Below, piece by piece: positions 1,943 through 17,948 of a stretch of DNA of 64,000 bases. The stretch lies in the NCBI GenBank assembly GCA_035648555.1, contig DASRLF010000020.1:2606-66605 (forward strand), written 5' to 3'. Below the pieces are notes generated by a model. It was not told the DNA's origin. It did not search any database and saw only the letters and a program-made list of their open reading frames with translations. The translations under genes were made by a program, and so were the position numbers. Source of the DNA: Pseudolabrys sp. (lineage in GTDB: Bacteria > Pseudomonadota > Alphaproteobacteria > Rhizobiales > Xanthobacteraceae). Every line of letters starts with the position of its first letter. The stretch's first letter is position 1.

Positions 1943-3067
1943 TTAACCGCCGCCGAATTCCTTGCGCACTTTCGCGGTATGGGCGCCGAGTGCCGGCACC
2001 GGGCCGTACGCCCGTGTCTTGCCGGCCCATTGCGGCGTCGGCGCCGGAATGCTCGCTGGCCCGCTCGGCGCATCGACGCTGATGCGCCGCAAGTGCGGAT
2101 GCTTGCTCAGCAAGGCGGAACCGTTGACGCGTGCAAAAGCGATATCGGCCGCTTCAAGTTTCTTCATCAGGGGTTCGGCGTCATGCGCGGCGAACACTTT
2201 GGCGACCGCGGCGTCGGTTTGCGCACGATGCTCGACGCGCTTGGTGACCGTGGCGAATTTCGGATCGTGCCCCAGCGAGACATCGCCCAGCACCTTGTCC
2301 GCCAATACGCGCCACTCGCGGTCGTTCTGGACGGCAATAAGGATGTCGGCGCCGTCGCGGGTCTGGTACGCGCGGTAGGGCGCGATGGTCGGATGAGCAA
2401 GGCCGACGCGCTTGAACGGATTGCCGTATTCTTCGTTCAGCAGCGGTATCGTCATCCATTCCGCCATGGCGTCGAACATGGAAATTGAAATCGCCGCGCC
2501 CTCGCCGGAGCGCCCGCGCGCGATCAACGCTTCCAGGATGGTTTCGTAGGCGCTCAAGCCGGCGGCGATATCGACGATCGAAACGCCGACGCGCGCCGGC
2601 GCTTCCGGCCCGCCGGTCACCGACGAGACGCCCGATTCCGCCTGGATCAGCAGGTCGTAGGCCTTGCGCTGCGCATAGGGACCGCTCTCGCCATAGCCGG
2701 AAATCGAGCAGCAGATCAGCCGCGGATAGTCCTTGCGCAAGCGCGCGAACGCGAAGCCGAGCTTGGCCAGCGCGCCCGGCTTAAGGTTTTGCACGAACAC
2801 ATCGGCCTTCGCCAGCATCGCTTCCAGCAGCGCCTTGTCCTCGTCGCGCACGAGGTCGAGCACCACCGATTCCTTGCCGCGATTGAGCCAGACGAAGTGC
2901 GCGCTCTCGCCGTGGACCACGTGATCGTAATGGCGGGAGAAATCGCCGTCCGGCCGCTCGACCTTGATGACGCGCGCGCCGGCGTCGGCGAGCCGGCAGG
3001 TGCACTGCGGCGCCGCCACGGCTTGCTCGACCGAGACGACCAGGAGGCCTGCGAGCGGCAGCGTCAT
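1943..3067 (-). CDS. Family III (CaiB/BaiF) CoA-transferase
   Basis: EQAVAAP, LADAGARVIKVERP, WLNRGKES, ADVFVQNLKPG, AYDLLIQAESG motifs. Confidence 0.93.
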   Translation of the reverse strand: MTLPLAGLLVVSVEQAVAAPQCTCRLADAGARVIKVERPDGDFSRHYDHVVHGESAHFVWLNRGKESVVLDLVRDEDKALLEAMLAKADVFVQNLKPGALAKLGFAFARLRKDYPRLICCSISGYGESGPYAQRKAYDLLIQAESGVSSVTGGPEAPARVGVSIVDIAAGLSAYETILEALIARGRSGEGAAISISMFDAMAEWMTIPLLNEEYGNPFKRVGLAHPTIAPYRAYQTRDGADILIAVQNDREWRVLADKVLGDVSLGHDPKFATVTKRVEHRAQTDAAVAKVFAAHDAEPLMKKLEAADIAFARVNGSALLSKHPHLRRISVDAPSGPASIPAPTPQWAGKTRAYGPVPALGAHTAKVRKEFGGG

Positions 3068-3068
3068 T

Positions 3069-4241
3069 TCAATACGAGCGCGGCAGACCGAGCACGTGCT
3101 CGGCCAGATAAGACAGGATCATGTTGGTCGAAATCGGCGCCACCTGGTAGAGCCGTGTCTCGCGGAATTTGCGCTCGACGTCGTATTCCTCGGCGAAACC
3201 GAAACCGCCGTGGGTCTGCACGCACATATCGGCGGCAAACCACGAGGCGTCGGCGGCCAGGAGCTTCGCCATATTGGCCTCCGGCCCGATGTCGGCGCCC
3301 GCTTCGTATTTGGCTGCGGCCTCGTGCACCATCAATTCGGCGGCGCGCATCTGCGCATAGGCGCGCGCGATCGGAAACTGCACGCCCTGGTTCTGCCCAA
3401 TCGGGCGGCCGAACAGCGCGCGCTCCTTGGCGTAAGCGGTCGCCTTGTTGATGAACCATTTGGCGTCGCCGATGCATTCGGCGGCGATCAAAATGCGTTC
3501 GGCGTTCATGCCGGAGAGAATGTAGCGGAAGCCCTGCCCCTCTTCGCCGATCAGATTTTCCGCCGGCACCCGCAAGTCGTCGAAGAACACCTCCGTGGTG
3601 GCGTGGTTCATCATGGTGCGGATCGGGTTGATGCTGATGCTGGTGCCTGCGGCGAGCCGCATGTCGACCAGAAAGACCGATAGACCGTCGGTGCGTTTCT
3701 TGACCTGCTCCTTCGGCGTGGTGCGCGCCAGCAGCAGCAGCAGGTCGGAATGTTCGGCGCGCGAGGTCCAGATTTTCTGGCCGTTGATGACGTAGTGGCC
3801 GTTGCCTTCCCTCCGCGCCGTAGTGCGCAAAGACAGAGTGTCGGTCCCCGACGTCGGCTCGGTGACGCCGAAGGCCTGCAAGCGCAATTCCCCACTGGCG
3901 ATTTTCGGAAGGTAGATTTGTTTTTGCTCGGGCAAACCGTGCCGCAGGATCGTGCCCATGGTGTACATCTGCGCGTGGCAGGCGGCGCCGTTGCAGCCGG
4001 AGGCCTGGATTTCCTCCAGGATCGCGCAAGCAGCGCCAATCGGCAGACCGCTGCCGCCGAATTCCTCCGGGATCAAGGCTGCGAGATAGCCGGCTTCGGT
4101 GAGCGCGCCGACGAATTCAGTCGGATAAGTTCTTTCGCGATCGAGCGCCCGCCAATATTCGCCGGGAAACTTGGCGCACAAAGCGCGCACCGACGCGCGG
4201 ATGTCGGCAAAGTCCTCATGCTGGGCGCTGCGCTTGCTCAT
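3069..4241 (-). CDS. Acyl-CoA dehydrogenase family protein
   Basis: FGVTEPTSGTD, NGQKIWTS, LFGRPIGQNQ, HGGFGFAEEYDVERKFRE motifs. Start 4241 overlaps the upstream stop (ATGA). Confidence 0.93.
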   Translation of the reverse strand: MSKRSAQHEDFADIRASVRALCAKFPGEYWRALDRERTYPTEFVGALTEAGYLAALIPEEFGGSGLPIGAACAILEEIQASGCNGAACHAQMYTMGTILRHGLPEQKQIYLPKIASGELRLQAFGVTEPTSGTDTLSLRTTARREGNGHYVINGQKIWTSRAEHSDLLLLLARTTPKEQVKKRTDGLSVFLVDMRLAAGTSISINPIRTMMNHATTEVFFDDLRVPAENLIGEEGQGFRYILSGMNAERILIAAECIGDAKWFINKATAYAKERALFGRPIGQNQGVQFPIARAYAQMRAAELMVHEAAAKYEAGADIGPEANMAKLLAADASWFAADMCVQTHGGFGFAEEYDVERKFRETRLYQVAPISTNMILSYLAEHVLGLPRSY

Positions 4242-5101
4242 GAGCCTTTTACTTCTGCCCGTCCATTGTCGATCACGACCGCGTCTCGTTCCACCGCCCA
4301 CGCGCGGAACCTTACCACGCCGGCATCGCGCCAAAACTCGGTGCGGATGGTTTCGCCCGGGAACGCCGGCGCCGAAAATCGGCCGGACATCGTGGTCAGC
4401 CGGGCCGGATCATAGCCGCAAACCGCCTTGAGCAGCGCGTGACCTGCGACCCCGAAGGTCGCCAGGCCGTGCAAAATCGGGCGCGGGAAGCCGGCGGCTT
4501 TGGCGAATTCCGGATCGGCATGCAGCGCATTGACGTCGCCGGACAGCCGGTAAATCAGCGCCATTTCCGGCCTTGTCGGCAGATCGCAGACGCCGTCCGG
4601 CGCGCGCGCCGGCAGCGCATGCGGGCGCGGCGTGTCGCGCTTCACCCCGCCGAAGCCACCATCGGCGCGGCAGAATGTAGTCTGCGTCAAGGTCGCGAGC
4701 AGGCGGCCGCTCGCTTTGTCGCTGATCGCGCGCTCGGAATAAACCAGCGCGCCTTTGCCTTCGCCTTTGTCGACAACGTCGAGGATGCGGGTGCGGCCGA
4801 TCACCGTACCTTGCGGCGCGACCGGTTCATGCAGCACCAAACCCTGCTCGCCATGCACGACGTGGGTCCAGGTGATGCCGAGATCGGGCTGGCGCAGCCA
4901 ATAGGCCGAGTAGCCTTGCACCAGCGCGTAAGTCGGTAGAATTTTCAGATTTTTTTCGTAGACGAAGGCAAGTTCATCGGCGTTGAGCGGATCCTGGCCA
5001 AGGCCCAGACCCAGCGCATAGAGCATGCAATCTTTGGGGCCGTAGCTGTGCTCGACCACCGGGATTTTCAGCGCCAGCAATTTTTCGCGATCGAGCGGCA
5101 T
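4238..5101 (-). CDS. MaoC/MFE-2-type double hot-dog (R)-enoyl-CoA hydratase
   Basis: LYALGLG, VVHGEQ, YRLSGDVNALHADP..A...GFPRPILHGL hydratase-2 motif. Confidence 0.9.
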   Translation of the reverse strand: MPLDREKLLALKIPVVEHSYGPKDCMLYALGLGLGQDPLNADELAFVYEKNLKILPTYALVQGYSAYWLRQPDLGITWTHVVHGEQGLVLHEPVAPQGTVIGRTRILDVVDKGEGKGALVYSERAISDKASGRLLATLTQTTFCRADGGFGGVKRDTPRPHALPARAPDGVCDLPTRPEMALIYRLSGDVNALHADPEFAKAAGFPRPILHGLATFGVAGHALLKAVCGYDPARLTTMSGRFSAPAFPGETIRTEFWRDAGVVRFRAWAVERDAVVIDNGRAEVKGS

Positions 5102-5108
5102 TCAAACG

Positions 5109-6212
5109 CTAACCCCAGACTTCCTTTGCGACCTCAACGATCATCTTCAGCTTGGCCCATTGCTCGTCCTCCGCCAAGACATTGCCCTCCTCGGTCGAGG
5201 CGAAGCCGCATTGCGGCGACAAACAAAGCTGATCAAGCGAGATATATTTCGCCGCCTCCTCGATGCGGCGCTTGAGATCGTCCTTGTTCTCCAGCCGGCC
5301 GGTCTTGGTGGTGACGAGCCCGAGCACGACATGGCGGTCCTTCGGCACCAGTTTAAGCGGCTCGAAGCCACCGGCACGCGCGCTGTCGTATTCCATGAAA
5401 TAGCCGTGCACCTTGATGCGGTTGAACAGGATCTCCTGCTCGGCCTCATAGCCGCCCGAGCCCATGAAGGTCGATTTATAATTGCCGCGGCACAGGTGCA
5501 TCGTAATGCGCATGTCGGCGGGAATATCCGACATAGCGGTGTTGATCAAATCGCCGTAGAGTTCGCCCAGTTTTTCCGGATCGTCGCCGCGCGCTTCCAT
5601 CTGCGCGCGGTATTTTTCATCGCACAACATGGCGATGAACACCTCGTCGAGTTGCAGATAACGGCAGCCGGCATCGGCGAAGGCGCGCACGGCTTTTTTA
5701 TACGCTTGGCCGAGATCGTCGAAGAACGCGTCGAGCTTGGGATAAATATTTCGGTCGATCGGTGTCGGCACCGGCCTGCCATAAGCCGCCGATGGCGATG
5801 GAATCGTAATCTTAGGCGTGCGCTGGGTGTGCGCGGCGACAAACTTGAAATGCTCGATCATCGGATGGCCGGAGAACCCGACTTTTCCCGCGACCTTGAG
5901 GCCTTCATTGCGCGTGGTGACTGCGGCGAAGGCGATGCCGGTGTCCATCACGTGCTTTTCGATGCCGTCGAGGCCCCAGAGAAAATCGAGGTGCCACCAG
6001 GACCGGCGGAATTCGCCGTCGGTGATCGATTGCAGACCGGCGTCTTCCTGGCGCTTGATGACGCGCTCGATCTCGCGATCTTCGACCGCCTTCAGTGCGC
6101 CGGTATCGATCTCACCTTTGGCGCGCTGCTCGCGCGCCTTTTTCAGCGCGGCTGGTCGCAGCAGGCTGCCGACATGGTCGGCGCGGAATGGCGGCTTTGT
6201 TCGCATCGTCAT
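5109..6212 (-). CDS. Cobalamin-independent methionine synthase II family protein (MetE catalytic barrel only, YxjH-like); array copy 5 of 5 in transcription order
   Basis: DHVGSLLR, TDGEFRR, Zn ligands H-L-C (MHLCRGN), E (YFMEYD) and C (SPQCGF); 367 aa, about half of full MetE. Confidence 0.9.
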   Translation of the reverse strand: MTMRTKPPFRADHVGSLLRPAALKKAREQRAKGEIDTGALKAVEDREIERVIKRQEDAGLQSITDGEFRRSWWHLDFLWGLDGIEKHVMDTGIAFAAVTTRNEGLKVAGKVGFSGHPMIEHFKFVAAHTQRTPKITIPSPSAAYGRPVPTPIDRNIYPKLDAFFDDLGQAYKKAVRAFADAGCRYLQLDEVFIAMLCDEKYRAQMEARGDDPEKLGELYGDLINTAMSDIPADMRITMHLCRGNYKSTFMGSGGYEAEQEILFNRIKVHGYFMEYDSARAGGFEPLKLVPKDRHVVLGLVTTKTGRLENKDDLKRRIEEAAKYISLDQLCLSPQCGFASTEEGNVLAEDEQWAKLKMIVEVAKEVWG

Positions 6213-7321
6213 CGGCTACCCCATACTTCTTGCGCGATTTCCACGATCATCTTGAGCTTCGCCCATTGCTCGTCCTCGGCCAGGATATTCCCTTCCTCGG
6301 TCGAGGCGAAGCCGCATTGCGGCGAAAGGCAAAGTTGGTCAAGCGGGACAAATTTCGTCGCCTGATCGATGCGGCGCTTGATGGCGTCCTTGGATTCCAG
6401 CCGGCCGCTTTTGCTGGTGACCAAACCAAGCACTACGGTCTTACCCTTGGGTACGAAACGCAGCGGCTCGAAACCGCCGGCGCGATCCGAGTCGTATTCC
6501 ATGAAATAGCCGTGCACGTTGATCGCATTGAACAGAATCTCCGCGACCGGCTCGTAGCCGCCAGAGGCCACGAAGGTAGACTGGAAATTTCCGCGGCACA
6601 GATGCATGGCGATGGCCATGTCGGCGGGAATGTCGGAGATCGCGGCGTTGATCAGCCGGGCATAGGCCGCGGGCAATTGGGCCGGATCCTCGCCGCGTTC
6701 GCTGACCTGCGCCCGCAGTTTGGGATCGCAAAGATAAGCGAGATTGACTTCATCGAATTGCAGATAGCGGCAGCCGGCATCGGCAAAACCACGCACCGCC
6801 TGAGCGTAGGTCCGGCCCAGATCAGAATAAAAGTCCTCCATGTCTGGATAAATCGCGCCCGGAATGGCGTCGCGGCCGTAGCGGAAATGCAACGACGACG
6901 GCGACGGGATCGTCATTTTCGGCGAAACGCGCGTGTGCGCCTTGACGAACTTGAAATGCTCCAGCATCGGATGACCGGAAAACGTGCCGAGCTCGCCGGT
7001 CACGCGCAGCATCATCGGCTTGGGGTTATTGCCCGCGAACTTGATCTTGCGTTCGCCGAGATAGGCTTCGACGCCATCAAGCGCGCCCAGAAAATCGTAA
7101 TTCCAGAAGGCGCGGCGAAATTCGCCGTCAGTGACGGCTTTTAGCCCAATGTCTTCTTGCTTCTTAATGACGGTGGCGATCTCGCGATCCTCGATCGCCT
7201 TGAGCTGATCGGCGGTGAGCTCGCCTTTTTCGCGCTGGGCGCGGGCTTCTTTCAGCGGCGCGGTCCGCAACAGGCTGCCGACATGATCGGCGCGGAAGGG
7301 AGGACTAAGACGTAATGTCAT
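6209..7321 (-). CDS. Cobalamin-independent methionine synthase II family protein; array copy 4 of 5
   Basis: Same motifs: MHLCRGNFQST, YFMEYD, SPQCGFASTEEGN; 370 aa. Confidence 0.9.
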   Translation of the reverse strand: MTLRLSPPFRADHVGSLLRTAPLKEARAQREKGELTADQLKAIEDREIATVIKKQEDIGLKAVTDGEFRRAFWNYDFLGALDGVEAYLGERKIKFAGNNPKPMMLRVTGELGTFSGHPMLEHFKFVKAHTRVSPKMTIPSPSSLHFRYGRDAIPGAIYPDMEDFYSDLGRTYAQAVRGFADAGCRYLQFDEVNLAYLCDPKLRAQVSERGEDPAQLPAAYARLINAAISDIPADMAIAMHLCRGNFQSTFVASGGYEPVAEILFNAINVHGYFMEYDSDRAGGFEPLRFVPKGKTVVLGLVTSKSGRLESKDAIKRRIDQATKFVPLDQLCLSPQCGFASTEEGNILAEDEQWAKLKMIVEIAQEVWGSR

Positions 7322-7330
7322 GCGCGGAGC

Positions 7331-8437
7331 TTAGCGGCCCCACACTTCTTCCGCCAACTCGACGATCATGCGCAGCTTGGCCCACTGCTCGTCCTCGGCC
7401 AGCACGTTGCCTTCCTCGGTCGAGGCGAAGCCGCACTGCGGCGAAAGGCACAGCTGCTCGAGCGCGACATATTTGGTGGCCTCCTCGATGCGGCGCTTGA
7501 TGTCGTCGCGCGGCTCCAGCCGGCCGCTTTTCGAGGTGACCAGGCCGAGGACCAGTTGCTTCTTGCCCTTGGGGAAAAAGCGCAGCGGCTCGAAGCCGCC
7601 GGCGCGGTCGCTGTCGTATTCCAGGAAATAGCCGTCGAAATTGGTGTTGCCGAGCAGATGCTCGGCGACGAATTCGTAGCCGCCCTGCGCGATCCAGGTG
7701 GAGCGGAAATTGCCGCGGCAGGAATGCATGGTGATCGCCATGTCGGCGGGCTTGCCGGCGAGCGCTTCATTGGTGACGCGCGCGTAGATCGCCGGCAGCG
7801 TGTCGGGGTCATCGCCGCGCGCCTTCGACTGCGCGCGCTCGTTCGGATCGCAGATCATTGACCAGGCGGTGTCGTCGAGCTGCAGGTAGCGGCAGCCGGC
7901 GTCGTAGAAGGCGCGGATCGCCTTGCGCCAGGCGGCGGCGACGTCGGCGAAGAAGGCGTCGTAGTCGGGATAGGCCTGCTTGCTCACCATCGCCCGGCCC
8001 TGCCGGAAATGGAACGTCGACGGCGCCGGGATCGTCATCTTCGGCGTGACGTTGCAGTGCGCCTTCAAGAACTTGAAATGCTCGATCATCGGATGGCCGG
8101 TGAAATCGACCTTGCCGGAGATCTTGATTGCCTCGGCTTTCGTCTCGACACCGTGAAATTTGATCGGCGGCGCGCTGATCATCTCGACGCCCTGCAGCCC
8201 CTTGAAGAAATCGAAGTGCCACCAGGAGCGGCGGAATTCGCCGTCGGTGGCGAGCTTCAGGCCCACCGCCGCCTGCTTCTTGATGATTTTTTCGATCTCG
8301 CGGTCTTCGACGTCTTTCAGCGCGCCGGCGTCGATCTCGCCCTTGGAAAATTTGGCGCGTGCGTCTTTCAGCGGAGCGGTGCGCAACAGGCTGCCGACCA
8401 TGTCGGCGCGGAACGGCGGCGCGGTGCGGGCGCTCAT
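7331..8437 (-). CDS. Cobalamin-independent methionine synthase II family protein; array copy 3 of 5
   Basis: Start ATG 8437 (MSARTAPPF) overlaps the upstream stop (ATGA); MHSCRGN, YFLEYD, SPQCGF. Confidence 0.9.
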   Translation of the reverse strand: MSARTAPPFRADMVGSLLRTAPLKDARAKFSKGEIDAGALKDVEDREIEKIIKKQAAVGLKLATDGEFRRSWWHFDFFKGLQGVEMISAPPIKFHGVETKAEAIKISGKVDFTGHPMIEHFKFLKAHCNVTPKMTIPAPSTFHFRQGRAMVSKQAYPDYDAFFADVAAAWRKAIRAFYDAGCRYLQLDDTAWSMICDPNERAQSKARGDDPDTLPAIYARVTNEALAGKPADMAITMHSCRGNFRSTWIAQGGYEFVAEHLLGNTNFDGYFLEYDSDRAGGFEPLRFFPKGKKQLVLGLVTSKSGRLEPRDDIKRRIEEATKYVALEQLCLSPQCGFASTEEGNVLAEDEQWAKLRMIVELAEEVWGR

Positions 8438-9540
8438 TTGCCCCACACCTCTTCTGCCAGTTCCACGATCATGCGCAGCTTGGCCCACTGCTCGTCCTCG
8501 GCCAGCACGTTGCCTTCCTCGGTCGAGGCGAAGCCGCATTGCGGCGACAAGCACAGCTGATCGAGCGCGACATATTTGCTGGCCTCGTCGATGCGGCGCT
8601 TGATGTCATCGCGCGGCTCCAACCGGCCCGACTTCGAAGTGACCAGGCCGAGCACCAGCTGCTTCTTGCCCTTGGGAAAATGACGCAGCGGCTCGAAGCC
8701 GCCGGCACGCTCGCTGTCGTATTCCAGGAAATAGCCGTCGAAATTGGTGTTGCCGAGCAGATGTTCGGCGACGAATTCATAGCCGCCCTGCGCGATCCAG
8801 GTGGAGCGGAAATTGCCGCGGCAGGAATGCATCGTAATCGCCATGTCGGCGGGCTTGCCTTCGAGCGCGGCATTGGTGACGCGTGCATAGATCGCCGGCA
8901 GCGTGTCGGGATTATCGCCGCGCGCCTTCGATTGCTCGCGCTCCTTGGGGTCGCAGATCATCGCCCAGGCGGTGTCGTCGAGCTGCAGGTAGCGGCAGCC
9001 GGCATCGTAGAAGGCGCGGATCGCCTTGCGCCAGGTGGCGCCGACATCCGCGAAGAAGGCGTCGTAGTCGGGGTAGGCCTCCTTGCTCACCATCGCCCGG
9101 CCCTGCCGGAAATGGAACGTGCTCGGCGCCGGAATGGTCATCTTGGGCGTGACGTTGCAATGCGCCTTCAGAAATTTGAAATGCTCGAGATGCGGATGGC
9201 CGGCGAAGTCGACCTTGCCGGTGATCTTGACCGCCTCGGCTTTTGTTTCGACGCCGTGGAATTTGATCGGCGGCGCACTGATCAGCTCGACGCCCTTGAG
9301 TCCCTTGAAGAAATCGAAATGCCACCAGGAACGGCGAAATTCGCCGTCGGTAGCGAGCTTCAGGCCCACCTCCGCCTGCTTCTTGACGATCTTCTCGATC
9401 TCGCGGTCTTCGACTTCGCGCAGCGCGTCGGCGGGAATTGCGCCTTTGGCAAACTTGGCGCGCGCCTCTTTCAGCGCAGCGGGGCGCAGCAGGCTGCCGA
9501 CGTGATCGGCGCGGAACGGCGCGGTCGTCCGCGCGCTCAT
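8434..9540 (-). CDS. Cobalamin-independent methionine synthase II family protein; array copy 2 of 5
   Basis: Start ATG 9540 (MSARTTAPF), ATGA overlap; about 90% identical to copy 3 by hand count. Confidence 0.9.
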   Translation of the reverse strand: MSARTTAPFRADHVGSLLRPAALKEARAKFAKGAIPADALREVEDREIEKIVKKQAEVGLKLATDGEFRRSWWHFDFFKGLKGVELISAPPIKFHGVETKAEAVKITGKVDFAGHPHLEHFKFLKAHCNVTPKMTIPAPSTFHFRQGRAMVSKEAYPDYDAFFADVGATWRKAIRAFYDAGCRYLQLDDTAWAMICDPKEREQSKARGDNPDTLPAIYARVTNAALEGKPADMAITMHSCRGNFRSTWIAQGGYEFVAEHLLGNTNFDGYFLEYDSERAGGFEPLRHFPKGKKQLVLGLVTSKSGRLEPRDDIKRRIDEASKYVALDQLCLSPQCGFASTEEGNVLAEDEQWAKLRMIVELAEEVWGK

Positions 9541-10646
9541 TTGCCCCAGACCTCTTGCGAAAGATCCACGATCATCTTCAGCTTGGCCCATTGCTCGTCC
9601 TCGGCCAGCACGTTGCCCTCTTCGGTCGAGGCAAAGCCGCATTGCGGCGAAAGACAAAGCTGATCGAGCGCGACATATTTAGTCGCCTCCTCGATGCGCT
9701 TCTTGATGTCTTCGCGCGGCTCCAGCCGGCCGGATTTCGAGGTGACGAGACCCAGCACAACGATCTTGTTGCCTTTCGGGACGAAGCGCAGCGGCTCGAA
9801 GCCGCCGGCGCGGTCGCTGTCATATTCCAGGAAGTAGCCATCGTAATTGCACTTGGCGAGCAGGCTCTCGGCCACCGGCTCGTAGCCGCCGGACGAAATA
9901 AAGGTGGAGCGGAAATTGCCCCGGCAAACATGGGTCGTGATGGTCATATCGGCGGGCTTGGCCTCCAGCGCCTTGTTGATGCAGCGGGTATAGCTATCCT
10001 GCAGATGATCGACATCGAGGCCGCGCTCGCGCGCCTTCTTCAACTCGGCCTCCGAGCAGAGATAGGCCCAGGCGGTGTCATCCCATTGCAGGTAGCGGCA
10101 GCCAGCGGCGTAGAACGCCTTAATCGCCGACTGATAGGCCATGGCGAGATCGTCGAAGATGGCGTCTCGGCTCGGATAGAACTCTTTGCTCACCGCGCCG
10201 GGTTCGAGCCGGAAATGCATCACGCTCGGCGCCGGAATGGTCATCTTCGGCATGACCTTGGTGTGCGCCTTCAGGAACCTGAAGTGCTCCAGCATCGGAT
10301 GATTGGAGAAGCCGATCTTGCCTTTGACGCGGATGCTGAGCGGCTTGGTCTGCACGCCCTGAAACTGGATGCCGTGGTCGAGCTCATAAATCTCGACGCC
10401 ATCGAGCATGCCGAAGAAATCAAAATGCCACCATGAGCGGCGGAATTCGCCGTCGGTGGCGAGCTTGAGCCCGATGTCTTCCTGTTTCTTGATGATCTTC
10501 TCGATCTCGCGATCCTCGACCTCTTTGAGCTGGGCCGGGCTAATTGCGCTCTTCTCGCGTTGCGCGCGCGCCTGCTTGACCGGCGCGGTGCGCAGGATGC
10601 TGCCGACATGGTCGGCGCGGAAAGGCGGCTTGGTTCGCTGCGTCAT
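9537..10646 (-). CDS. Cobalamin-independent methionine synthase II family protein; array copy 1 of 5
   Basis: THVCRGNFRST, YFLEYD, SPQCGF; GGAGG RBS upstream of ATG 10646. Confidence 0.9.
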   Translation of the reverse strand: MTQRTKPPFRADHVGSILRTAPVKQARAQREKSAISPAQLKEVEDREIEKIIKKQEDIGLKLATDGEFRRSWWHFDFFGMLDGVEIYELDHGIQFQGVQTKPLSIRVKGKIGFSNHPMLEHFRFLKAHTKVMPKMTIPAPSVMHFRLEPGAVSKEFYPSRDAIFDDLAMAYQSAIKAFYAAGCRYLQWDDTAWAYLCSEAELKKARERGLDVDHLQDSYTRCINKALEAKPADMTITTHVCRGNFRSTFISSGGYEPVAESLLAKCNYDGYFLEYDSDRAGGFEPLRFVPKGNKIVVLGLVTSKSGRLEPREDIKKRIEEATKYVALDQLCLSPQCGFASTEEGNVLAEDEQWAKLKMIVDLSQEVWGK

Positions 10647-10690: not shown

Positions 10691-11545
10691 TTATTTAATG
10701 TGAGCCATAGCACGGCCCGGCTGCGGCGTGCCATGCGCCGCTTCGCATGCGTAGCGTGCAGTTTCGATGGTGCCCCCGAATGAAAAATAATGCGGCGCGG
10801 CATCGCCCAGATCGCCAGCGGCCACAAGCGCCTCAAGGATGCGGTCCGGCCCGACATGGCCAATCAGGCCGGCGGCCGCGCCCGACATCAGGCCGCGCAG
10901 CGAAGCGGCAACGCCGCAACGCTGGGCGTAACGGAACAGCGCCGGCACGCTGGTCGGTCCAGCCATACCGACTTTCACCGGCTGATTGATGCCGCAGGTG
11001 CGCAACTGCCGGAGCCAGGCGAGGATACGCTCGGGCGAAAAGGAAAATTGGCTGACGATATGTACGCCAAGTCCTTGCGCGGTGGCGGCGGCGATCTTTT
11101 CATCAAGCGCCGCTTCAAGCCGGCCGGCCGGAATGCGCGGGTGGCCTTCCGGATAGGCGCCGATGCCGATCTCTTCAATGCCGGCTTCGCGCAATTTGCC
11201 TTTCTGAATCACCGCCAGCGCGTCTGGATAAGGCCCCGCGGCGTCGACATCGCCACCGACCACGAGAATACGGCGGATGTCCGCTTCGCCACGCAGGCTG
11301 GCCAGCAGGTTTTGCAAGTCGGCGGCCGCGCCAATTCGGCGCGCCGCGATATGAACGACCGGTTCCAAGCCGGACTTACGCAGCAAAGCCGCCGCCGCGA
11401 TCAGCTCAGGCGGCTCGATCGTCGGCACCGCCGAAAAATAGACCGGCGTTCCGCCCGGCAGCAGGTCCGCCAACGCCGCAATCTCGGCCGCGCCGGGACG
11501 CGTGGCCTCAAGCGAAAACCGCCGCGCGAAGGCGTCCGGGCTCAT
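10691..11545 (-). CDS. metF: Methylenetetrahydrofolate reductase-like flavoprotein (atypical alphaproteobacterial MetF family)
   Basis: FSLEAT, PVVHIAARR, LVVGGD, GAYPEGHP, VSQFSF, GMAGP, RCGV, YFSFGG match the MTHFR barrel motifs in order. Confidence 0.8.
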   Translation of the reverse strand: MSPDAFARRFSLEATRPGAAEIAALADLLPGGTPVYFSAVPTIEPPELIAAAALLRKSGLEPVVHIAARRIGAAADLQNLLASLRGEADIRRILVVGGDVDAAGPYPDALAVIQKGKLREAGIEEIGIGAYPEGHPRIPAGRLEAALDEKIAAATAQGLGVHIVSQFSFSPERILAWLRQLRTCGINQPVKVGMAGPTSVPALFRYAQRCGVAASLRGLMSGAAAGLIGHVGPDRILEALVAAGDLGDAAPHYFSFGGTIETARYACEAAHGTPQPGRAMAHIK

Positions 11546-11549
11546 TGCG

Positions 11550-12959
11550 CTATTCGCGCCGGTGCGAGATCACGAAAGATTCGTCGTAGAACCAAAGACC
11601 GCCCTGCTGCTGCAGCACGTCGCGCGTCGCCTCGATGTAGCGGCGGTCGCTGTTGACGTCGGACAGGCGGTCGTCCTCGATTTGCGCCACGTAGATCGCG
11701 GCGTTCCAGGCCGCCAGCAGCGTCGAGGTGCCGATCGATGAGGAAATTTCCGATGGCAGCGTGTGCATCTCGTAGCGGAACAGCGAGCGCTGGTCGGAAT
11801 AGGCGTTGAAATTGAGATCGCGGCCGGCAGGCCCCAGTTCGTGTTTCACCGCCTTGAGTAGATCGTGGCGGCTATGCGCGAAGGGATTATCCTCGGGCCA
11901 AACTTTGTGGATGATTTCCATGCCGGGGTCACGCCCGTAGGAATGGATCGCGATCATACGGCCGCCGGGCCCGAGCGCGCGAGCGAGCGGCGCCAGCACG
12001 CGCTTGGCCTTGAAGTCGATCGAGGCGCGCGCGCGATAAGGCTGCGACGCGATCACCAGATCGTAGTCGGCAACCGTGGCGCCCGGTTTCGGGATGACCT
12101 GATCGAGCAGAAACTTGTGATCGTTGCGGTAAAGCACCAGCACCACCGGCCGCTCGTAGACCGGATTGCCGCTCTTCGGCGACACGCGCGCTTTCCAGTT
12201 TTCACCAAGGAACGGCTCAAGCGCGGTGATCTGCTGCTCGAACGAATGCGCGGTGTCGCCCTCGAGCGCAACTTCCTTCCAGACCATGCTGGAGGCCGCC
12301 GTCACCGACTTGACGGACAGCCACGGCGCTTCCGCGTAAGCGAGGTTGGTAAGAACAATGACGCTCGAAGGATGCTCAATGAAACGGTCCGCCATTTTCT
12401 GCAGCGTGAGGCGGACATCTTCGAGGCTGATTTCCTTGGCCACGATGTAGAACGGCATGGTCGGGTAACGGTCGTGCATCGAGCGCATGACGCGCGCCAG
12501 CACGGTGCCGTCGCCAACGCCGGCGTCGAACACACGCACCGCCGGCGGTCGCGGGTGGATGCTGGCAAGTTCGAGACTGACGCGGTTGGCGACTTCCCAC
12601 TTCTCGCTGCAGGTATTCACGAACAGCAGATATTTCTGCCTGTTGTCGAAGAATCGGAAATTGCGTTGCGGGTCGTCGCCCGCTTGACCGGAGGCGACCG
12701 GCGGGGCCGGCGGCTTGACCATCGGCAAGACCGCGGGCGGCGCCGCATCGAACAATACGCGGCGGCGAGCCGGCGCTGCGTCGGCGTTGCGCGCCATGAA
12801 GCTACGGATGCGCTCGAGCGTGTCAGTGGTAATGCGGCCGCCATTGCGCAGGCGGTTGGCGAGCTTGCCGTCATTGACCGCGCGGCGGCCGAAAGTGGAT
12901 TCGGCCAGACCGCGCTGGCGGCAGAATTCGCCGATCTCCTGGAGGATTTGATCGTTCAT
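11550..12959 (-). CDS. Fusion of an N-terminal small HTH-like DNA-binding domain and a class I SAM-dependent methyltransferase-like domain
   Basis: Residues 1-56 (GLAESTFGRRAVNDGKLANRLRNGG) are Cro/XRE-like, followed by a Pro/Ala linker and the SAM-binding motif I VFDAGVGDG. Confidence 0.65.
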   Translation of the reverse strand: MNDQILQEIGEFCRQRGLAESTFGRRAVNDGKLANRLRNGGRITTDTLERIRSFMARNADAAPARRRVLFDAAPPAVLPMVKPPAPPVASGQAGDDPQRNFRFFDNRQKYLLFVNTCSEKWEVANRVSLELASIHPRPPAVRVFDAGVGDGTVLARVMRSMHDRYPTMPFYIVAKEISLEDVRLTLQKMADRFIEHPSSVIVLTNLAYAEAPWLSVKSVTAASSMVWKEVALEGDTAHSFEQQITALEPFLGENWKARVSPKSGNPVYERPVVLVLYRNDHKFLLDQVIPKPGATVADYDLVIASQPYRARASIDFKAKRVLAPLARALGPGGRMIAIHSYGRDPGMEIIHKVWPEDNPFAHSRHDLLKAVKHELGPAGRDLNFNAYSDQRSLFRYEMHTLPSEISSSIGTSTLLAAWNAAIYVAQIEDDRLSDVNSDRRYIEATRDVLQQQGGLWFYDESFVISHRRE

Positions 12960-13041
12960 GGGTGCGTTTCCTGGCTGGCTCTCATGGCCGGCTCAGCGCC
13001 TAGGGAACCAAGCTTACTCAAATCCGTCAATCACAAAAGAG

Positions 13042-13180
13042 GCTATATAAAAGGTGGGCAAAGTGGGTGGGCTCAGCCCAACGCTATATTTATATGAATA
13101 TATTGTTCTTTGAAAAGGTGTTTCCGGCTTTCAGTGGGCTACTACCCACTTACTGCGTAAGTGTGGGCAATAAGTGGGCC
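13042..13180. promoter_or_regulatory. AT-rich upstream region of the met-like operon with repeated GTGGG boxes and three palindromes
   Basis: GTGGG at 13054, 13063, 13067, 13134, 13163, 13174. TGGGCT-C-AGCCCA 13068-13080; AGTGGG-N6-CCCACT 13133-13150; CACTTAC-N3-GTAAGTG 13147-13163. Confidence 0.55.
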
Positions 13181-13202
13181 GCGCGGTCCGGCGATAACGT
13201 CT

Positions 13203-13817
13203 TCAGATGTCGAAGAAAACCGTTTCGTCGCCGCCCTGGACGCGAATGTCGAAGCGGTAGGTGGCGGGGCCGCTGCCGGGCTGCTTGTGGGCAATAAGGG
13301 TGCCGCGGCGGTCTGCCGGCACTAGCGTCAGGATTTGATCGGCATCGTTCGCCTTCTCGTCGGAGAAATACAGCCGCGTATAGATCTGCCGCAGCATGCC
13401 GCGCGAGAAGATGCAGACCACGATATGCGGCGCCTGCGGCTTGCCGTTCGGCCCCTGCACCGCGCCGGGCTTGACGGTGTCGAACGAATAGATGCCGTCT
13501 TTGTCGGTGGCGGAACGGCCGAAGCCGGTAAACTTCGCATTCGGGCGCGGCTTCTCACCGCGCGCATGGGCATAACGGCCTTGGGCATCGGCCTGCCAGA
13601 TTTCGATCATGGCGTCGTTGATCGGCTTGCCGTCACCGTCGAGCACGCGGCCTTCGATGTGGATCTTGGTGCCGGTGGCGTCGGGTGTGATCAGATTGTC
13701 GCCGACGGTTTCCTTCCAGCTATAGTGGCCGTTCGGATCCCATTGGCAGCGGCCATCAGGCGTCAGCCCATAGGCGAAGAACGGCCCAACCGTCTGTGAG
13801 GGCGTGATTTCGGACAT
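13203..13817 (-). CDS. pcaG: Protocatechuate 3,4-dioxygenase alpha subunit
   Basis: ITPSQTVGPFF, IEIWQADAQG, QAPHI..FSRG, YRFDIRVQG..ETVFFDI. Confidence 0.96.
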   Translation of the reverse strand: MSEITPSQTVGPFFAYGLTPDGRCQWDPNGHYSWKETVGDNLITPDATGTKIHIEGRVLDGDGKPINDAMIEIWQADAQGRYAHARGEKPRPNAKFTGFGRSATDKDGIYSFDTVKPGAVQGPNGKPQAPHIVVCIFSRGMLRQIYTRLYFSDEKANDADQILTLVPADRRGTLIAHKQPGSGPATYRFDIRVQGGDETVFFDI

Positions 13818-14524
13818 TAGTGTTTATCCGTGTCTAGCGGCGTCGCCTCGCGCCCGCGCAACACGATGTTCCAGCGGAAGCAGAGCGCCCAGTCGGGAAT
13901 GGTGTTCTCCAGATCGAAGTTGGAGACCATGCGCTGGCGCGCTTTCTCGTCGGTCACCGAATTGAAGATCGGATCGAACGGAAACAGATAATCGCCGGGG
14001 AAATACATCTGGGTGACGAGGCGCGTGAGGAACGACTGGCCGAAGACCGAGAAATGGATGTGGTTCGGCCGCCAAGCATTGTGATGATTGCCCCACGGAT
14101 AGGCGCCGGGCTTCACGGTGATGAATTTGTAGTAGCCGTTCATGTCCGTGATGGTGCGGCCCGCGCCGGTGAAATTCGGATCGAGCGGCGCCGGATGCTG
14201 ATCGACGATGTGCACGTAGCGGCCGCAGGCATTAGCTTGCCAGATTTCCACCAGCGTCTCGGGGATCGGTCGCTTGTCCTCGTCCAGCACCTGGCCGTGC
14301 ACGATGATGCGCTCGCCCAAGGGCTCGCCTTTGTGCTGCTTGGTGAGGTCGTTGTCGGTGTCCTGGATCGCGTCGTGACCGAAGGCCGGACCTGAGAGCT
14401 CGGACAGCGTGTGCGGTACAATCACCAAAGGCTTGGACGGCGAGCGCTTCACCGTGCTGCGGTATTCCGGCGACAGATGCTTGGGAAAGGCGTCGAGGCT
14501 TTCCTTGGGATAGATCAGCGACAT
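13817..14524 (-). CDS. pcaH: Protocatechuate 3,4-dioxygenase beta subunit
   Basis: EIWQANACGRYVH, KPGAYPWGNHHNAWRPNHIHFS (Fe ligands Tyr/His). Confidence 0.97.
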   Translation of the reverse strand: MSLIYPKESLDAFPKHLSPEYRSTVKRSPSKPLVIVPHTLSELSGPAFGHDAIQDTDNDLTKQHKGEPLGERIIVHGQVLDEDKRPIPETLVEIWQANACGRYVHIVDQHPAPLDPNFTGAGRTITDMNGYYKFITVKPGAYPWGNHHNAWRPNHIHFSVFGQSFLTRLVTQMYFPGDYLFPFDPIFNSVTDEKARQRMVSNFDLENTIPDWALCFRWNIVLRGREATPLDTDKH

Positions 14525-14541: not shown

Positions 14542-15752
<1,211 letters not shown>

Positions 15753-15756
<4 letters not shown>

Positions 15757-16526
15757 GCCGCCTCGCCGTGGGCGCGGTTGGTGCGCGCCTGCAATTCACG
15801 CAACACTTCGAGCTCTTTCGCGGTCGGCGCCGGCGTCTCGGCGACCTTCGAGGCAAAACGTATTTTCCAGCCAGTGTTCTCCTGGATCTGCTCGCGTGTG
15901 ACGCCGGGATGAATCGAGACGACGGTCATTTCCTTGGTTTGCGGATCGGGCTCAAGCATCGCCAGGTCGGTGATCAACTTGGTCGGGCCTTTGGTTTTGA
16001 CGCCCAGTTTGGCCCGCGAGTCGCCGCCGGTGACGTGGCCGATCGACGTCACGAAATCGAGTCTGTCGACAAAGCCGCGCTTGCCCTGCGCCATGATGAT
16101 GAAAATCTCGCCGCACGAGGTGGCGATCTCCGGCGCGCCGCCGCCGCCGGGCAGCCGCACCTTCGGCTTGTCGTAGGGACCGACCACGGTGGTGTTGAGA
16201 TTGGCGTATTTGTCGATCTGCGCGCCACCGAGGAAGCCGATCTTGATGCGGCCGCCTTGCAGCCAGTAGCGGAACATTTCCGGCACCGACACGGTGGTGA
16301 CCGCAGTCTCGCACAATTCGCCGTCGCCGATCGACAGCGGCAGGATGTTGGGCTTGGTGGCGAGCGTGCCGGATTCGTAAATCAGCGTGATACCGGGCGC
16401 ATGCGTGAGGCGCGCGAGATTGCAGGCCGCCGAGGGCTGGCCGATGCCGACAAAGCAAACGTCGTCGTTCTTCAAAGCGCGCGCCGCAGCGATCGTCATC
16501 ATCTCGTTGGGCTTGTAGTCGGCCAT
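15753..16526 (-). CDS. pcaJ: 3-oxoadipate CoA-transferase subunit B (GctB/CatJ type)
   Basis: FVGIG, LIYESG, GGAQIDKYANLN, RLPGGGGA. Confidence 0.88.
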
Positions 16527-16531
16527 GCTTC

Positions 16532-17395
16532 TTACTCCGCCGCCGAACTAAGTTTGCGCGCGTGCACGGCAAAAGCCTCGGGGCCTTTCGCCAGCACGTT
16601 TTCCTTCATCCATGAAAGGAACGAGTCGCGCTCGCGCGAGACCGCATCCCATTGCTTGTAGAAACTGTTGTTGCGCGGGTAATAGCCCTGCGCATACGAC
16701 GGGAACGCGCCGCCCGGTACCTCGACCACATGGCCGACGGTCCAGTGCGGCAGCACCACCGCATTGAGGCTGCGATCCGGCGGCAGCTCGTCGACGATCT
16801 CCTCCACCGTCACCACCGAGCGCTTCGACGCCAACACCGCTTCCTTCTGCACGCCGAGCACGCCCTCGATCATGACGTTACCGGCTTTGTCGGCGCGTTG
16901 CGCATGGATCATCGCGACGTCTGGCCGGTGCGCCGGGATCGCGGCCAGTTCCTCGCCGGTGAAAGGACAGGTCACCCGCTTGATCTTGGAATTCACTTTC
17001 GGCAGGTCGCCGCCGATATAGCCGCGGAAAATCGCGCAAGGCAGCCCGGCAGCGCCCGCTTCATAGGCGTTGGCCATGGCGGCGTGCGAATGCTCCTCTA
17101 TTTCCAATTTATGCGGCCAGCCGTTTTCTACTGCGTCGCGAAAACGATACAGCGAGCCGACGCCCGGATTGCCGCCCCATGAGAACACCAGTTTCTTGAC
17201 GCACCCCATGCCGATGAGCTGGTCGTAAACCAGGTCTGGCGTCATGCGGATCAGCGTCAGGCCCTTGCGGCCCTGGCGGATGATCTCGTGGCAGGCGGCA
17301 TGGGGAATGAGATGGGTGAAGCCCTCCAGCGCCATCGTGTCGCCGTCGCGAACGGCATCTTTAATGGCTTCGGCGAGAGACGAAATACGCGCCAT
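16532..17395 (-). CDS. pcaI: 3-oxoadipate CoA-transferase subunit A (GctA/CatI type)
   Basis: ALEGFTHLIP, RMTPDLVYDQLIG, WGGNPGVGSL. Start ATG 17395. Confidence 0.88.
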   Translation of the reverse strand: MARISSLAEAIKDAVRDGDTMALEGFTHLIPHAACHEIIRQGRKGLTLIRMTPDLVYDQLIGMGCVKKLVFSWGGNPGVGSLYRFRDAVENGWPHKLEIEEHSHAAMANAYEAGAAGLPCAIFRGYIGGDLPKVNSKIKRVTCPFTGEELAAIPAHRPDVAMIHAQRADKAGNVMIEGVLGVQKEAVLASKRSVVTVEEIVDELPPDRSLNAVVLPHWTVGHVVEVPGGAFPSYAQGYYPRNNSFYKQWDAVSRERDSFLSWMKENVLAKGPEAFAVHARKLSSAAE

Positions 17396-17467
17396 GCGAG
17401 GCTGCTTCCCGGTTGCGGCACCGTATTTACGGCTGGTCACAGGCAGGGTCAAATGGCGAAATAGGCG

Positions 17468-17487
17468 TAAGTTTGAGCTCCAACGAA
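17468..17487. promoter_or_regulatory. Putative MarR operator, degenerate copy (TAAGTTTGAGCTCCAACGAA)
   Basis: 13/20 match to the 22321 palindrome; abuts the DUF3237 start codon in the pcaI/DUF3237 divergent gap. Confidence 0.5.
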
Positions 17488-17948
17488 TGGCAGCCATGCT
17501 GGGCAAAGAACCGATCTTCACAATTCACGCCGACTTGGCGGACATCATGAATTTCGGCCGCACGCCCTATGGCGAGCGCCGCGTTATCGGCATCCTCGGC
17601 GGCAGCGTGCGCGGACCCAAGTTGCAAGGGCGTATCCTGCCGGGCGGCTTCGACTGGCAAATCATACGCAATGACGGCGCGGCGGATATCAGCGCGCGCT
17701 ACACCATCGAGACGGATGCCGGCGCGCGCATCCTGGTGTCGAGCGACGGCTTGCGGCATGGTCCGCCCGACGTGATGGCGCGGCTGGCGCGGGGCGACAG
17801 TGTCGACCCCTCGCACTATTATTTCCGCACGGTGATGCGGTTTGAGACTGCCGATCCGGCGGTGGACTGGCTCAACCGGATTCTCGGATTGACGCGCGGA
17901 CAGCGCGAGGCCAACGCCGTGCGTCTCGATGTCTATGAGGTCAAATAA
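17487..17948 (+). CDS. DUF3237 family beta-barrel protein
   Basis: TPYGERRVI.I.GG.V.GPKLQG..LPGGFDWQ, ARYTIETD, YYFRTVMRFET pattern. Confidence 0.85.
   Translation: MAAMLGKEPIFTIHADLADIMNFGRTPYGERRVIGILGGSVRGPKLQGRILPGGFDWQIIRNDGAADISARYTIETDAGARILVSSDGLRHGPPDVMARLARGDSVDPSHYYFRTVMRFETADPAVDWLNRILGLTRGQREANAVRLDVYEVK

Follow-up and report, generated by a model that had tools for sequence, protein, structure and literature searches.

In this study, we analyzed a 64,000-nt stretch of the genome of Pseudolabrys sp. (GCA_035648555.1, contig DASRLF010000020.1, positions 2,606–66,605 of the forward strand; hereafter the window), which is part of a metagenome-assembled genome (MAG) of 2.99 Mb that is 92% complete and in which the window lies on contig C20. 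The window encodes P0001, a methylenetetrahydrofolate reductase (MTHFR) homolog that, judging from its sequence, is a member of the broad S6MTHFR-like family, named after the enzyme of Sphingobium lignivorans SYK-6, and sits on a distinct branch of it. On balance, P0001 is probably a flavin-dependent MTHFR that most likely works as a 5-methyltetrahydrofolate (5-methyl-THF) oxidoreductase, forming the folate-side methyl outlet of a lignin-aromatic module and not the 5,10-methylene-THF (CH2-THF) reductase of the cell. Within this proposal, four points are inferred: that P0001 binds FAD, which way its reaction runs, that the methyl groups come from aromatics, and how they would reach THF.

The open reading frame (ORF) of P0001 is intact from ATG to TAA and occupies exactly positions 10691–11545 of the minus strand, and its translation contains all five motifs that the initial annotation of this DNA had listed (FSLEAT, here within RRFSLEAT, HIAARR, VVGGD, GAYPEGHP, and RCGV). 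The same annotation had assigned the protein to an atypical MTHFR family close to the MetF of SYK-6, and both assignments are borne out by the profile and structure searches. Pfam MTHFR (PF02219) gives a weak match over residues 49–212 (32.1 bits, cut-off 24), and the models of canonical MetF fall below threshold, with 30.1 bits against a cut-off of 293.7 for the equivalog TIGR00676 and 19 bits against 382 for PRK09432. When P0001 was compared with the Protein Data Bank (PDB) using phmmer, S6MTHFR (7xg9/7xlf) was by far the nearest solved protein (E 1e-53, 186 bits, residues 9–265), whereas the next solved matches, all canonical MetFs, reached at most 33 bits. An AlphaFold model built on 60 relatives (predicted local distance difference test (pLDDT) score of 92) likewise had 7xlf as its top Foldseek match, with a TM-score of 0.85 compared with about 0.68 for canonical enzymes.

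Homologs of P0001 form 318 clusters at 50% identity (E ≤ 1e-30) among 1.8 billion representatives. An order-level search with P0001 alone at E ≤ 1e-50 matched only one other genome, and we therefore sampled at the level of the class, running the family hidden Markov model (HMM) on 401 sampled alphaproteobacterial genomes. In a tree, P0001 groups with 86 other S6MTHFR-like sequences, and all 87 rows split from the genome's own canonical MetF with a Shimodaira–Hasegawa-like approximate likelihood ratio test (SH-aLRT) support of 95; clustering with canonical MetF, the outcome that would have spoken against the initial annotation, was thus not observed. P0001 lies within a 14-row clade of its own (SH-aLRT 97). 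As the tree did not include S6MTHFR itself, profiles of the three S6MTHFR-like subclades were scored against 7xg9 instead, and they matched it at 284 (P0001 clade), 270 (corrinoid-linked clade), and 274 bits (remaining sequences); canonical MetFs scored below 60 bits against the same three profiles.

The residues that set S6MTHFR apart from canonical enzymes allow a finer placement. S6MTHFR, the founder of the type 4 MTHFRs, oxidizes methyl-THF and hardly reacts with NADH (Yu et al. 2025, PMC11868366). Its exclusion of NADH was traced to three fragments, namely, Leu48-Pro49, held by Arg78, Phe215/Cys219 on helix α8, and Pro268-Phe269-Gly-Gly-Leu; a swap of the Pro268 loop (β8-α11) gave forward, NADH-dependent activity, and Pro268 is stated to be conserved in type 4 MTHFRs (PMC11868366). 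Taking the residue roles from that study and the equivalences from a HMMER alignment and an 89-row alignment, the sites of the two proteins correspond as follows:

Catalytic residues: E13, D99, and Q166 of P0001 correspond to E21, D107, and Q175 of S6MTHFR; kept.
Loop β2-α3: V40-P41 and R70 of P0001 correspond to L48-P49 and R78; a conservative Leu-to-Val change, with V, L, or I in the clade.
Helix α8: Y206 and C210 of P0001 correspond to F215 and C219; Tyr predominates across the wider family.
Loop β8-α11: S255-F256-G257-G258-T259 of P0001 corresponds to P268-F269-G-G-L272; Phe-Gly-Gly is kept, Pro is not.

Every member of the 14-row clade has Ser-Phe-Gly-Gly in place of the Pro268 motif, and because this replacement is clade-wide, we regard P0001 as a variant branch of type 4 and not as a strict member. 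It does not resemble the canonical type at these sites either: the small NADH-site residues and the Thr-x-Asn-type loop of canonical MetF, which the genome's own copy shows as Gly-Ala and Thr-Met-Asn, are Val-Pro and Ser-Phe-Gly in P0001. The pterin- and para-aminobenzoate (pABA)-contacting residues of 7xlf that were checked are conserved or conservatively replaced.

P0001 is one of three MTHFR-family genes in the MAG. The canonical MetF (312 bits) is encoded on another contig, between a SahR-like gene (ArsR plus methyltransferase) and a gene for a 1248-aa protein that its pterin-binding and B12 domains identify as MetH. A canonical MetF was also found in all five of the other genomes that carry an enzyme similar to P0001. 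Because a canonical sahR-metF-metH set is present elsewhere in the genome, P0001 is most likely an extra, specialized enzyme rather than the one that provides methionine synthesis with methyl-THF. The third gene (G000:C6:20206–21357, or L002:1465–2616, minus strand) encodes a third-class MTHFR-like protein of 383 aa that matches PF02219 at about 115 bits; among NCBIfam models, it fits best to the C-terminal half of a bifunctional YitJ-type one.

P0001 lies in a row of genes that are all on the minus strand and are listed here from the upstream to the distal end:

14542–17521, minus strand: two CoA-transferase subunits (pcaIJ-like) and a thiolase (pcaF-like), from Pfam; order conserved.
13817–14524, minus strand: pcaH, protocatechuate 3,4-dioxygenase subunit (Pfam Dioxygenase_C/PCDO_beta_N for the pcaH and pcaG pair).
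13203–13817, minus strand: pcaG, protocatechuate 3,4-dioxygenase subunit, upstream of P0002 on the same strand.
12960–13202: gap of 243 nt between pcaG and P0002, the sole sizeable intergenic gap in the row by ORF coordinates.
11550–12959, minus strand: P0002, 469 aa, helix-turn-helix (HTH) and methyltransferase-like; its stop lies 4 nt before the MTHFR start.
10691–11545, minus strand: P0001, S6MTHFR-like ("type 4"-like) MTHFR of 284 aa (ORF, motifs, PF02219, 7xg9 match, AlphaFold2/Foldseek, and tree).
9537–10646, minus strand: ME1, PRK06520-type half-size MetE-like Zn methyltransferase, starting 44 nt past the MTHFR stop with its own GGAGG ribosome-binding site.
8434–9540, minus strand: ME2, PRK06520 paralog, start taken at an inner ATG.
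7331–8437, minus strand: ME3, PRK06520 paralog, start taken at an inner ATG.
6209–7321, minus strand: ME4, PRK06520 paralog.
5109–6212, minus strand: ME5, PRK06520 paralog.
4238–5101, minus strand: MaoC-type hydratase, in the distal part of the row.
3069–4334, minus strand: acyl-CoA dehydrogenase (ACAD), in the distal part of the row.
1943–3067, minus strand: family III CoA-transferase, at the distal end of the row.

Eighty species-level Pseudolabrys/Undibacter genomes share the order pcaIJFHG-P0002-MTHFR-ME(×1–5)-ACAD-CoA-transferase, which was also seen in a relative whose MTHFR is 66% identical. In most of the 80 related loci, pcaHG lies upstream of P0002; the distal MaoC, ACAD, and CoA-transferase genes are also kept in most related loci, as well as in locus L162. 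The 243-nt gap is a possible internal promoter or operator region. A consensus scan detected no sigma-70 site or intrinsic terminator in this gap, nor in the P0002/MTHFR and MTHFR/ME1 junctions, and its terminator-like matches were all inside genes. The segment 9537–12959 was recovered as exact contigs in one soil and one peat metagenome from different studies, and a word search for it returned leaf-litter runs at a share of at most 0.23. In a peat metatranscriptome, short contigs at 92–97% matched ME1 and P0002; there was none for the MTHFR gene.

The five tandem MetE-like proteins, ME1–ME5, are about 367–370 aa long (ME2 and ME3 counted from the inner ATG). The initial annotation had described the adjoining synthases as lacking a folate-binding domain, and they are indeed half-size: the sole matches of all five are to the catalytic Meth_synt_2 domain and to NCBIfam PRK06520, and none matches the N-terminal Meth_synt_1 domain above cut-off. 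ME1 scores 436 bits against PDB 1ypx, a YxjG/YxjH-like protein of Listeria. In ME1, the one paralog aligned to full-length MetE, the zinc ligands H-x-C, E, and C are intact, as are the VGS, GE, and DD motifs of the homocysteine site, which in MetE hold the amino-acid end of homocysteine, and the Trp of the GW(V/I)QSYGSR stretch, which we take to be a folate-contacting residue, is replaced. From these features, the MetE-like proteins look like X-methyl:homocysteine methyltransferases with different donors. The MAG contains about six further half-size Meth_synt_2 genes (on contigs C42, C17, C11, C8, C59, and C5) and no full-length MetE, and its methionine synthesis seems to rest on MetH.

P0002, encoded directly upstream of the MTHFR gene, has no match in Pfam or NCBIfam. 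It is composed of an HTH-like head (residues 1–60), a disordered linker (65–105), and a class-I S-adenosylmethionine (SAM)-methyltransferase-like body, and the folds nearest to its AlphaFold2 model (pLDDT 86.5) are those of histamine N-methyltransferase and other small-molecule methyltransferases. The family alignment shows about 70 invariant residues in the body, including an intact FDAGxGDG, and P0002 homologs are 59–84% identical in loci where the adjoining MTHFRs are merely 40–48% identical. The family was detected in 38 of the 401 genomes and has two forms: a long one that carries the HTH head, and a body-only one of 370–430 aa that is devoid of the DNA-binding part. We rejected a pure transcription-factor role for P0002, as body-only forms exist; for the same reason, we infer that the body does more than sense for a transcription factor and acts in its own right, either enzymatically or as a protein that partners with MTHFRs.

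Members of the P0002 family abut S6MTHFR-like genes in eight loci and a third-class MTHFR-like gene in five further alphaproteobacterial genomes (L165, L170, L172, L173, and L177), where the orthologs are 47–58% identical to the protein on C6; the family is thus paired with two different MTHFR classes. They also abut MetK together with a MetE-like gene in L183; in L166, the neighbor is a GcvT-family gene encoding 466 aa. Across the 401 genomes, a PRK06520-type ME gene is distributed as follows:

Genomes with the P0002 family: 26 of 38.
Genomes without the P0002 family: 35 of 363.
Genomes with an S6MTHFR-like gene and no P0002: 3 of 56.
Genomes with an S6MTHFR-like gene and P0002 anywhere: 15 of 19.
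Genomes with P0002 and the MTHFR gene adjacent: 8 of 8.

The co-occurrence of P0002 and ME corresponds to an odds ratio of about 20 (Fisher 2e-15), in counts that ignore kinship and whose positives are spread over many families.

The surroundings of P0001 differ from those by which its enzyme type was described, as type 4 MTHFRs are defined by their pairing with the THF-dependent demethylases LigM, DesA, Dmt, and CmuAB (PMC11868366). An S6MTHFR-like match was found in 75 of the 401 genomes. About 20 kb were taken around each HMM match, the neighbors were clustered, and the clusters were named with Pfam. The distant MetE-like genes beside the MTHFR gene in L116 (26% identity to ME1) and beside P0002 in L183 (18%) do not count as PRK06520-type neighbors. 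The tallies below cover genes within 6 kb of the MTHFR gene in 74 loci:

At least 25 of 74 loci: corrinoid methyltransferase set (B12-binding protein, pterin-binding MeTr, and RACo, frequently joined by DUF1638 and a small PF13769 protein).
15 of 74 loci: GcvT-family neighbor (DmdA-size, dimethylglycine-dehydrogenase, or sarcosine-oxidase type).
8 of 74 loci: P0002 homolog.
5 of 74 loci: MetE-like neighbor.

The published demethylase-pairing rule therefore holds for most loci, and the window locus belongs to a minority class. This P0002/MetE-like class hardly overlaps with the others: of its 10 loci, the corrinoid set occurs only in L116 and a GcvT-family neighbor in none, and its MTHFRs fall outside the large corrinoid-linked clade of the tree, which comprises 43 rows and has Pro at the 268 position. 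L116 (G304:C11, ~1.10–1.12 Mb) combines corrinoid and MetE-like parts in one methyl-transfer island: a single row holds an S6MTHFR-like gene and the distant MetE-like gene along with genes for a family III CoA-transferase, a methyltransferase of the URO-D family, a B12-binding protein, RACo, and a pterin-binding MeTr.

We also searched for the demethylases that such a pairing would call for. In the MAG, no LigM/DesA/DmdA-type demethylase was found, the sole GCV_T-family match being YgfZ, and no corrinoid-type demethylase, as pterin-binding and B12-binding domains occur only in MetH and no RACo was found. A VanA-type oxygenase (VanA_C) was not found either; P450-type demethylases were not part of the search. 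Among five fuller relatives that carry the same cluster (3.5–4.6 Mb), none of these demethylase types was found in four, and the fifth, G798, has one GcvT-like gene (155 bits). All these absences come from incomplete MAGs and are not proof. The T protein of glycine cleavage was not found in the MAG or in four of the five fuller relatives (G799–G802). Sphingobium SYK-6 is also reported to lack this protein, and S6MTHFR is said to replace glycine cleavage there as the source of CH2-THF (PMC12585457). FolD, which would take the next step after CH2-THF, is present in the genome.

Taken as a working scheme, a single gene row would produce P0001 together with the protocatechuate branch (pcaIJFHG), P0002, and the five MetE-like enzymes. 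Methyl groups of methoxylated lignin aromatics would pass via P0001 into C1 oxidation or assimilation, P0001 converting CH3-THF to CH2-THF and handing the electrons to an acceptor other than a pyridine nucleotide. The initial annotation had left two options side by side, the supply of methyl-THF to the MetE-like barrels and the draining of methyl groups toward C1 oxidation. We favor the second and give less weight to the first because the NADH-blocking positions are kept (Val40-Pro41 and Phe256-Gly-Gly) and because a canonical sahR-metF-metH set is present elsewhere; none of the evidence points to P0001 and the barrels being physical partners. The methyl groups could reach THF by two routes: (i) the MetE-like enzymes may methylate THF directly, or (ii) they may methylate homocysteine, with the methyl group returning to folate via SAM and the body of P0002 as the candidate SAM-dependent step. 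Mammals dispose of methyl groups in a manner comparable to route (ii), via glycine N-methyltransferase and sarcosine dehydrogenase. The scattered AhcY, MetK, ME, P0002, and MTHFR genes of genome G050 fit route (ii), and they fit a plain SAM-cycle regulon equally. The loci concerned, L087 and L183, are two contigs of that genome (with the ME gene of L183 on the opposite strand) and jointly hold all the parts of a homocysteine/methionine/SAM loop. It is conceivable, although we think it improbable, that the whole amounts to a corrinoid-free and GcvT-free demethylation of aryl methyl ethers by a thiol relay, in which each ME would move the methyl group of a different aromatic to homocysteine, from where it would travel through methionine, SAM, and the P0002 body to THF and the Ser255 MTHFR, or in which ME would methylate THF directly. 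If true, either version would be a new three-family methyl-transfer module found in about 1/20 of Alphaproteobacteria.

Several observations weigh against a role of P0001 as a methyl outlet. Of the usual steps past CH2-THF, PurU did not score above its cut-off in the 92%-complete MAG, and Fhs was not detected there. As their homocysteine-site motifs are kept, the MetE-like neighbors probably make methionine and not methyl-THF, which leaves the source of the P0001 substrate unexplained. The Pro268 site is occupied by Ser255 in P0001 and by Thr in canonical enzymes, so that the direction of the reaction could differ in the P0001 branch. The co-occurrence statistics are uncorrected for relatedness. 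Finally, the SAM-cycle neighbors found elsewhere (AhcY-MTHFR-ME in L087 and ME-P0002-MetK in L183) fit methionine-cycle housekeeping equally well. They would also suit a forward supplier, that is, a Ser255-branch enzyme that reduces CH2-THF with some donor and feeds the half-size MetE-like proteins as methionine synthases, with P0002 as a SahR-like sensor of SAM and S-adenosylhomocysteine (SAH) and the row as an alternative methionine/SAM-recycling module. The zinc and homocysteine-site motifs kept in the ME proteins point the same way, as do Ser255, which is closer to the canonical Thr than to the Pro of S6MTHFR, and the regulator-metF-synthase order, which mirrors sahR-metF-metH. We nevertheless consider such a supplier unlikely, since the NADH blockers Val40-Pro41 and Phe256 are kept and a canonical MetF is encoded in all six genomes checked, here with MetH alongside. 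The ME proteins, moreover, have no N-terminal barrel, ME1 has lost the Trp of GW(V/I)QSYGSR, and a housekeeping role would hardly explain the five paralogs that follow pca genes.

Other explanations keep the oxidizing direction or abandon the reaction altogether. P0002 might sense SAM/SAH and turn on an oxidizing MTHFR that relieves a methyl-folate trap created by the canonical MetF, the adjacency to pca and ME genes being an accident of the lineage. Pairs of P0002 and MTHFR genes that have no adjoining ME (L089, L098, L100, L103, L106, and L163) agree with such an overflow valve, and so do the P0002 relatives that adjoin the third-class gene in five genomes. However, all eight genomes with an adjacent P0002-MTHFR pair carry a PRK06520-type ME (odds ratio of about 20 for the co-occurrence), 80 species-level genomes retain the arrangement with ME and pca genes, and body-only P0002 proteins, which have no HTH, cannot be transcription factors; we judge a valve of this kind to be doubtful. 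The low Pfam score (32 bits) and a constant partner of unknown function could also mean that P0001 has the MTHFR fold and another job, for example, with a different reduced pterin as its substrate or with flavoprotein partnership to P0002 as its main role. This appears very improbable, as the checked contacts to the pterin and pABA moieties of methyl-THF are either unchanged or conservatively substituted and the clade profile matches S6MTHFR at 284 bits. The reading that we retain is thus that of a probable methyl-THF-oxidizing outlet enzyme.

From a biological perspective, the P0001 branch breaks the demethylase-pairing rule of the type 4 enzymes in abundant soil and peat bacteria that have hydroxycinnamate and protocatechuate pathways and no recognizable O-demethylase. 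If its pairing with the ME array and P0002 is functional, these bacteria would remove methoxy groups from lignin monomers into C1 metabolism in an undescribed way. Such a pairing would also give a first functional handle on two large and uncharacterized families, the PRK06520/YxjG-type "methionine synthase II" proteins and the methyltransferase-like P0002 proteins, and, with Ser in place of Pro268, would provide a naturally occurring variant in which to study what determines the direction of MTHFR catalysis.

Enzymes of this kind have been known since 2025, and the Ser255 branch and its set of partners are not described in the literature that we found; our search returned no paper linking MetE-like proteins with an S6MTHFR-type MTHFR or with aromatic O-demethylation. 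The type 4 enzymes (PDB 7XG9/7XLF; N20MTHFR of Rhizorhabdus dicambivorans and the CM4 homolog; PMC11868366) are, like P0001, single-domain TIM barrels of about 285 aa. S6MTHFR of Sphingobium lignivorans SYK-6 shares with P0001 the lignin-aromatic context and the protocatechuate genes. P0001 departs from S6MTHFR at Leu48, Pro268, and Leu272, where it has Val, Ser, and Thr, respectively, and in contrast to the type 4 pairing, its neighbors are P0002 and the PRK06520 MetE-like genes, a partner of the LigM, DesA, Dmt, or CmuAB type not having been found. The two genomes also differ in their supply of methyl-THF, as demethylation is described as its sole source in SYK-6 (PMC11868366), whereas the genome of P0001 also has a canonical MetF.

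The S6MTHFR-like enzymes encoded within corrinoid methyltransferase islands in other Alphaproteobacteria (cf. MtgBCDE, PMC12478193) are of the same broad family as P0001 and presumably share its role as an outlet for methyl-THF, but they form a separate clade and have other partners (B12-binding protein, DUF1638, MeTr, and RACo), none of which is present in the P0001 genome except in MetH. On the synthase side, ME1–ME5 resemble the core or half-size MetE proteins (core-MetE/MesA-D, PMC7005905 and PMC7857596; YxjG/YxjH-type PRK06233/PRK06520, 1YPX), which likewise consist of the catalytic barrel only, with the zinc ligands intact. The core synthases described so far use the methyl group of a corrinoid protein or require MesX and oxygen (PMC7005905, PMC7857596). 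A corrinoid protein for a methyl supply of the core-MetE type was not found in the MAG, and DUF1852/MesX was outside the search. Finally, canonical MetF of the E. coli type (TIGR00676), in its sahR-metF-metH setting, resembles the P0001 locus in fold, in catalytic residues, and in the order of regulator, MTHFR, and methyl acceptor.

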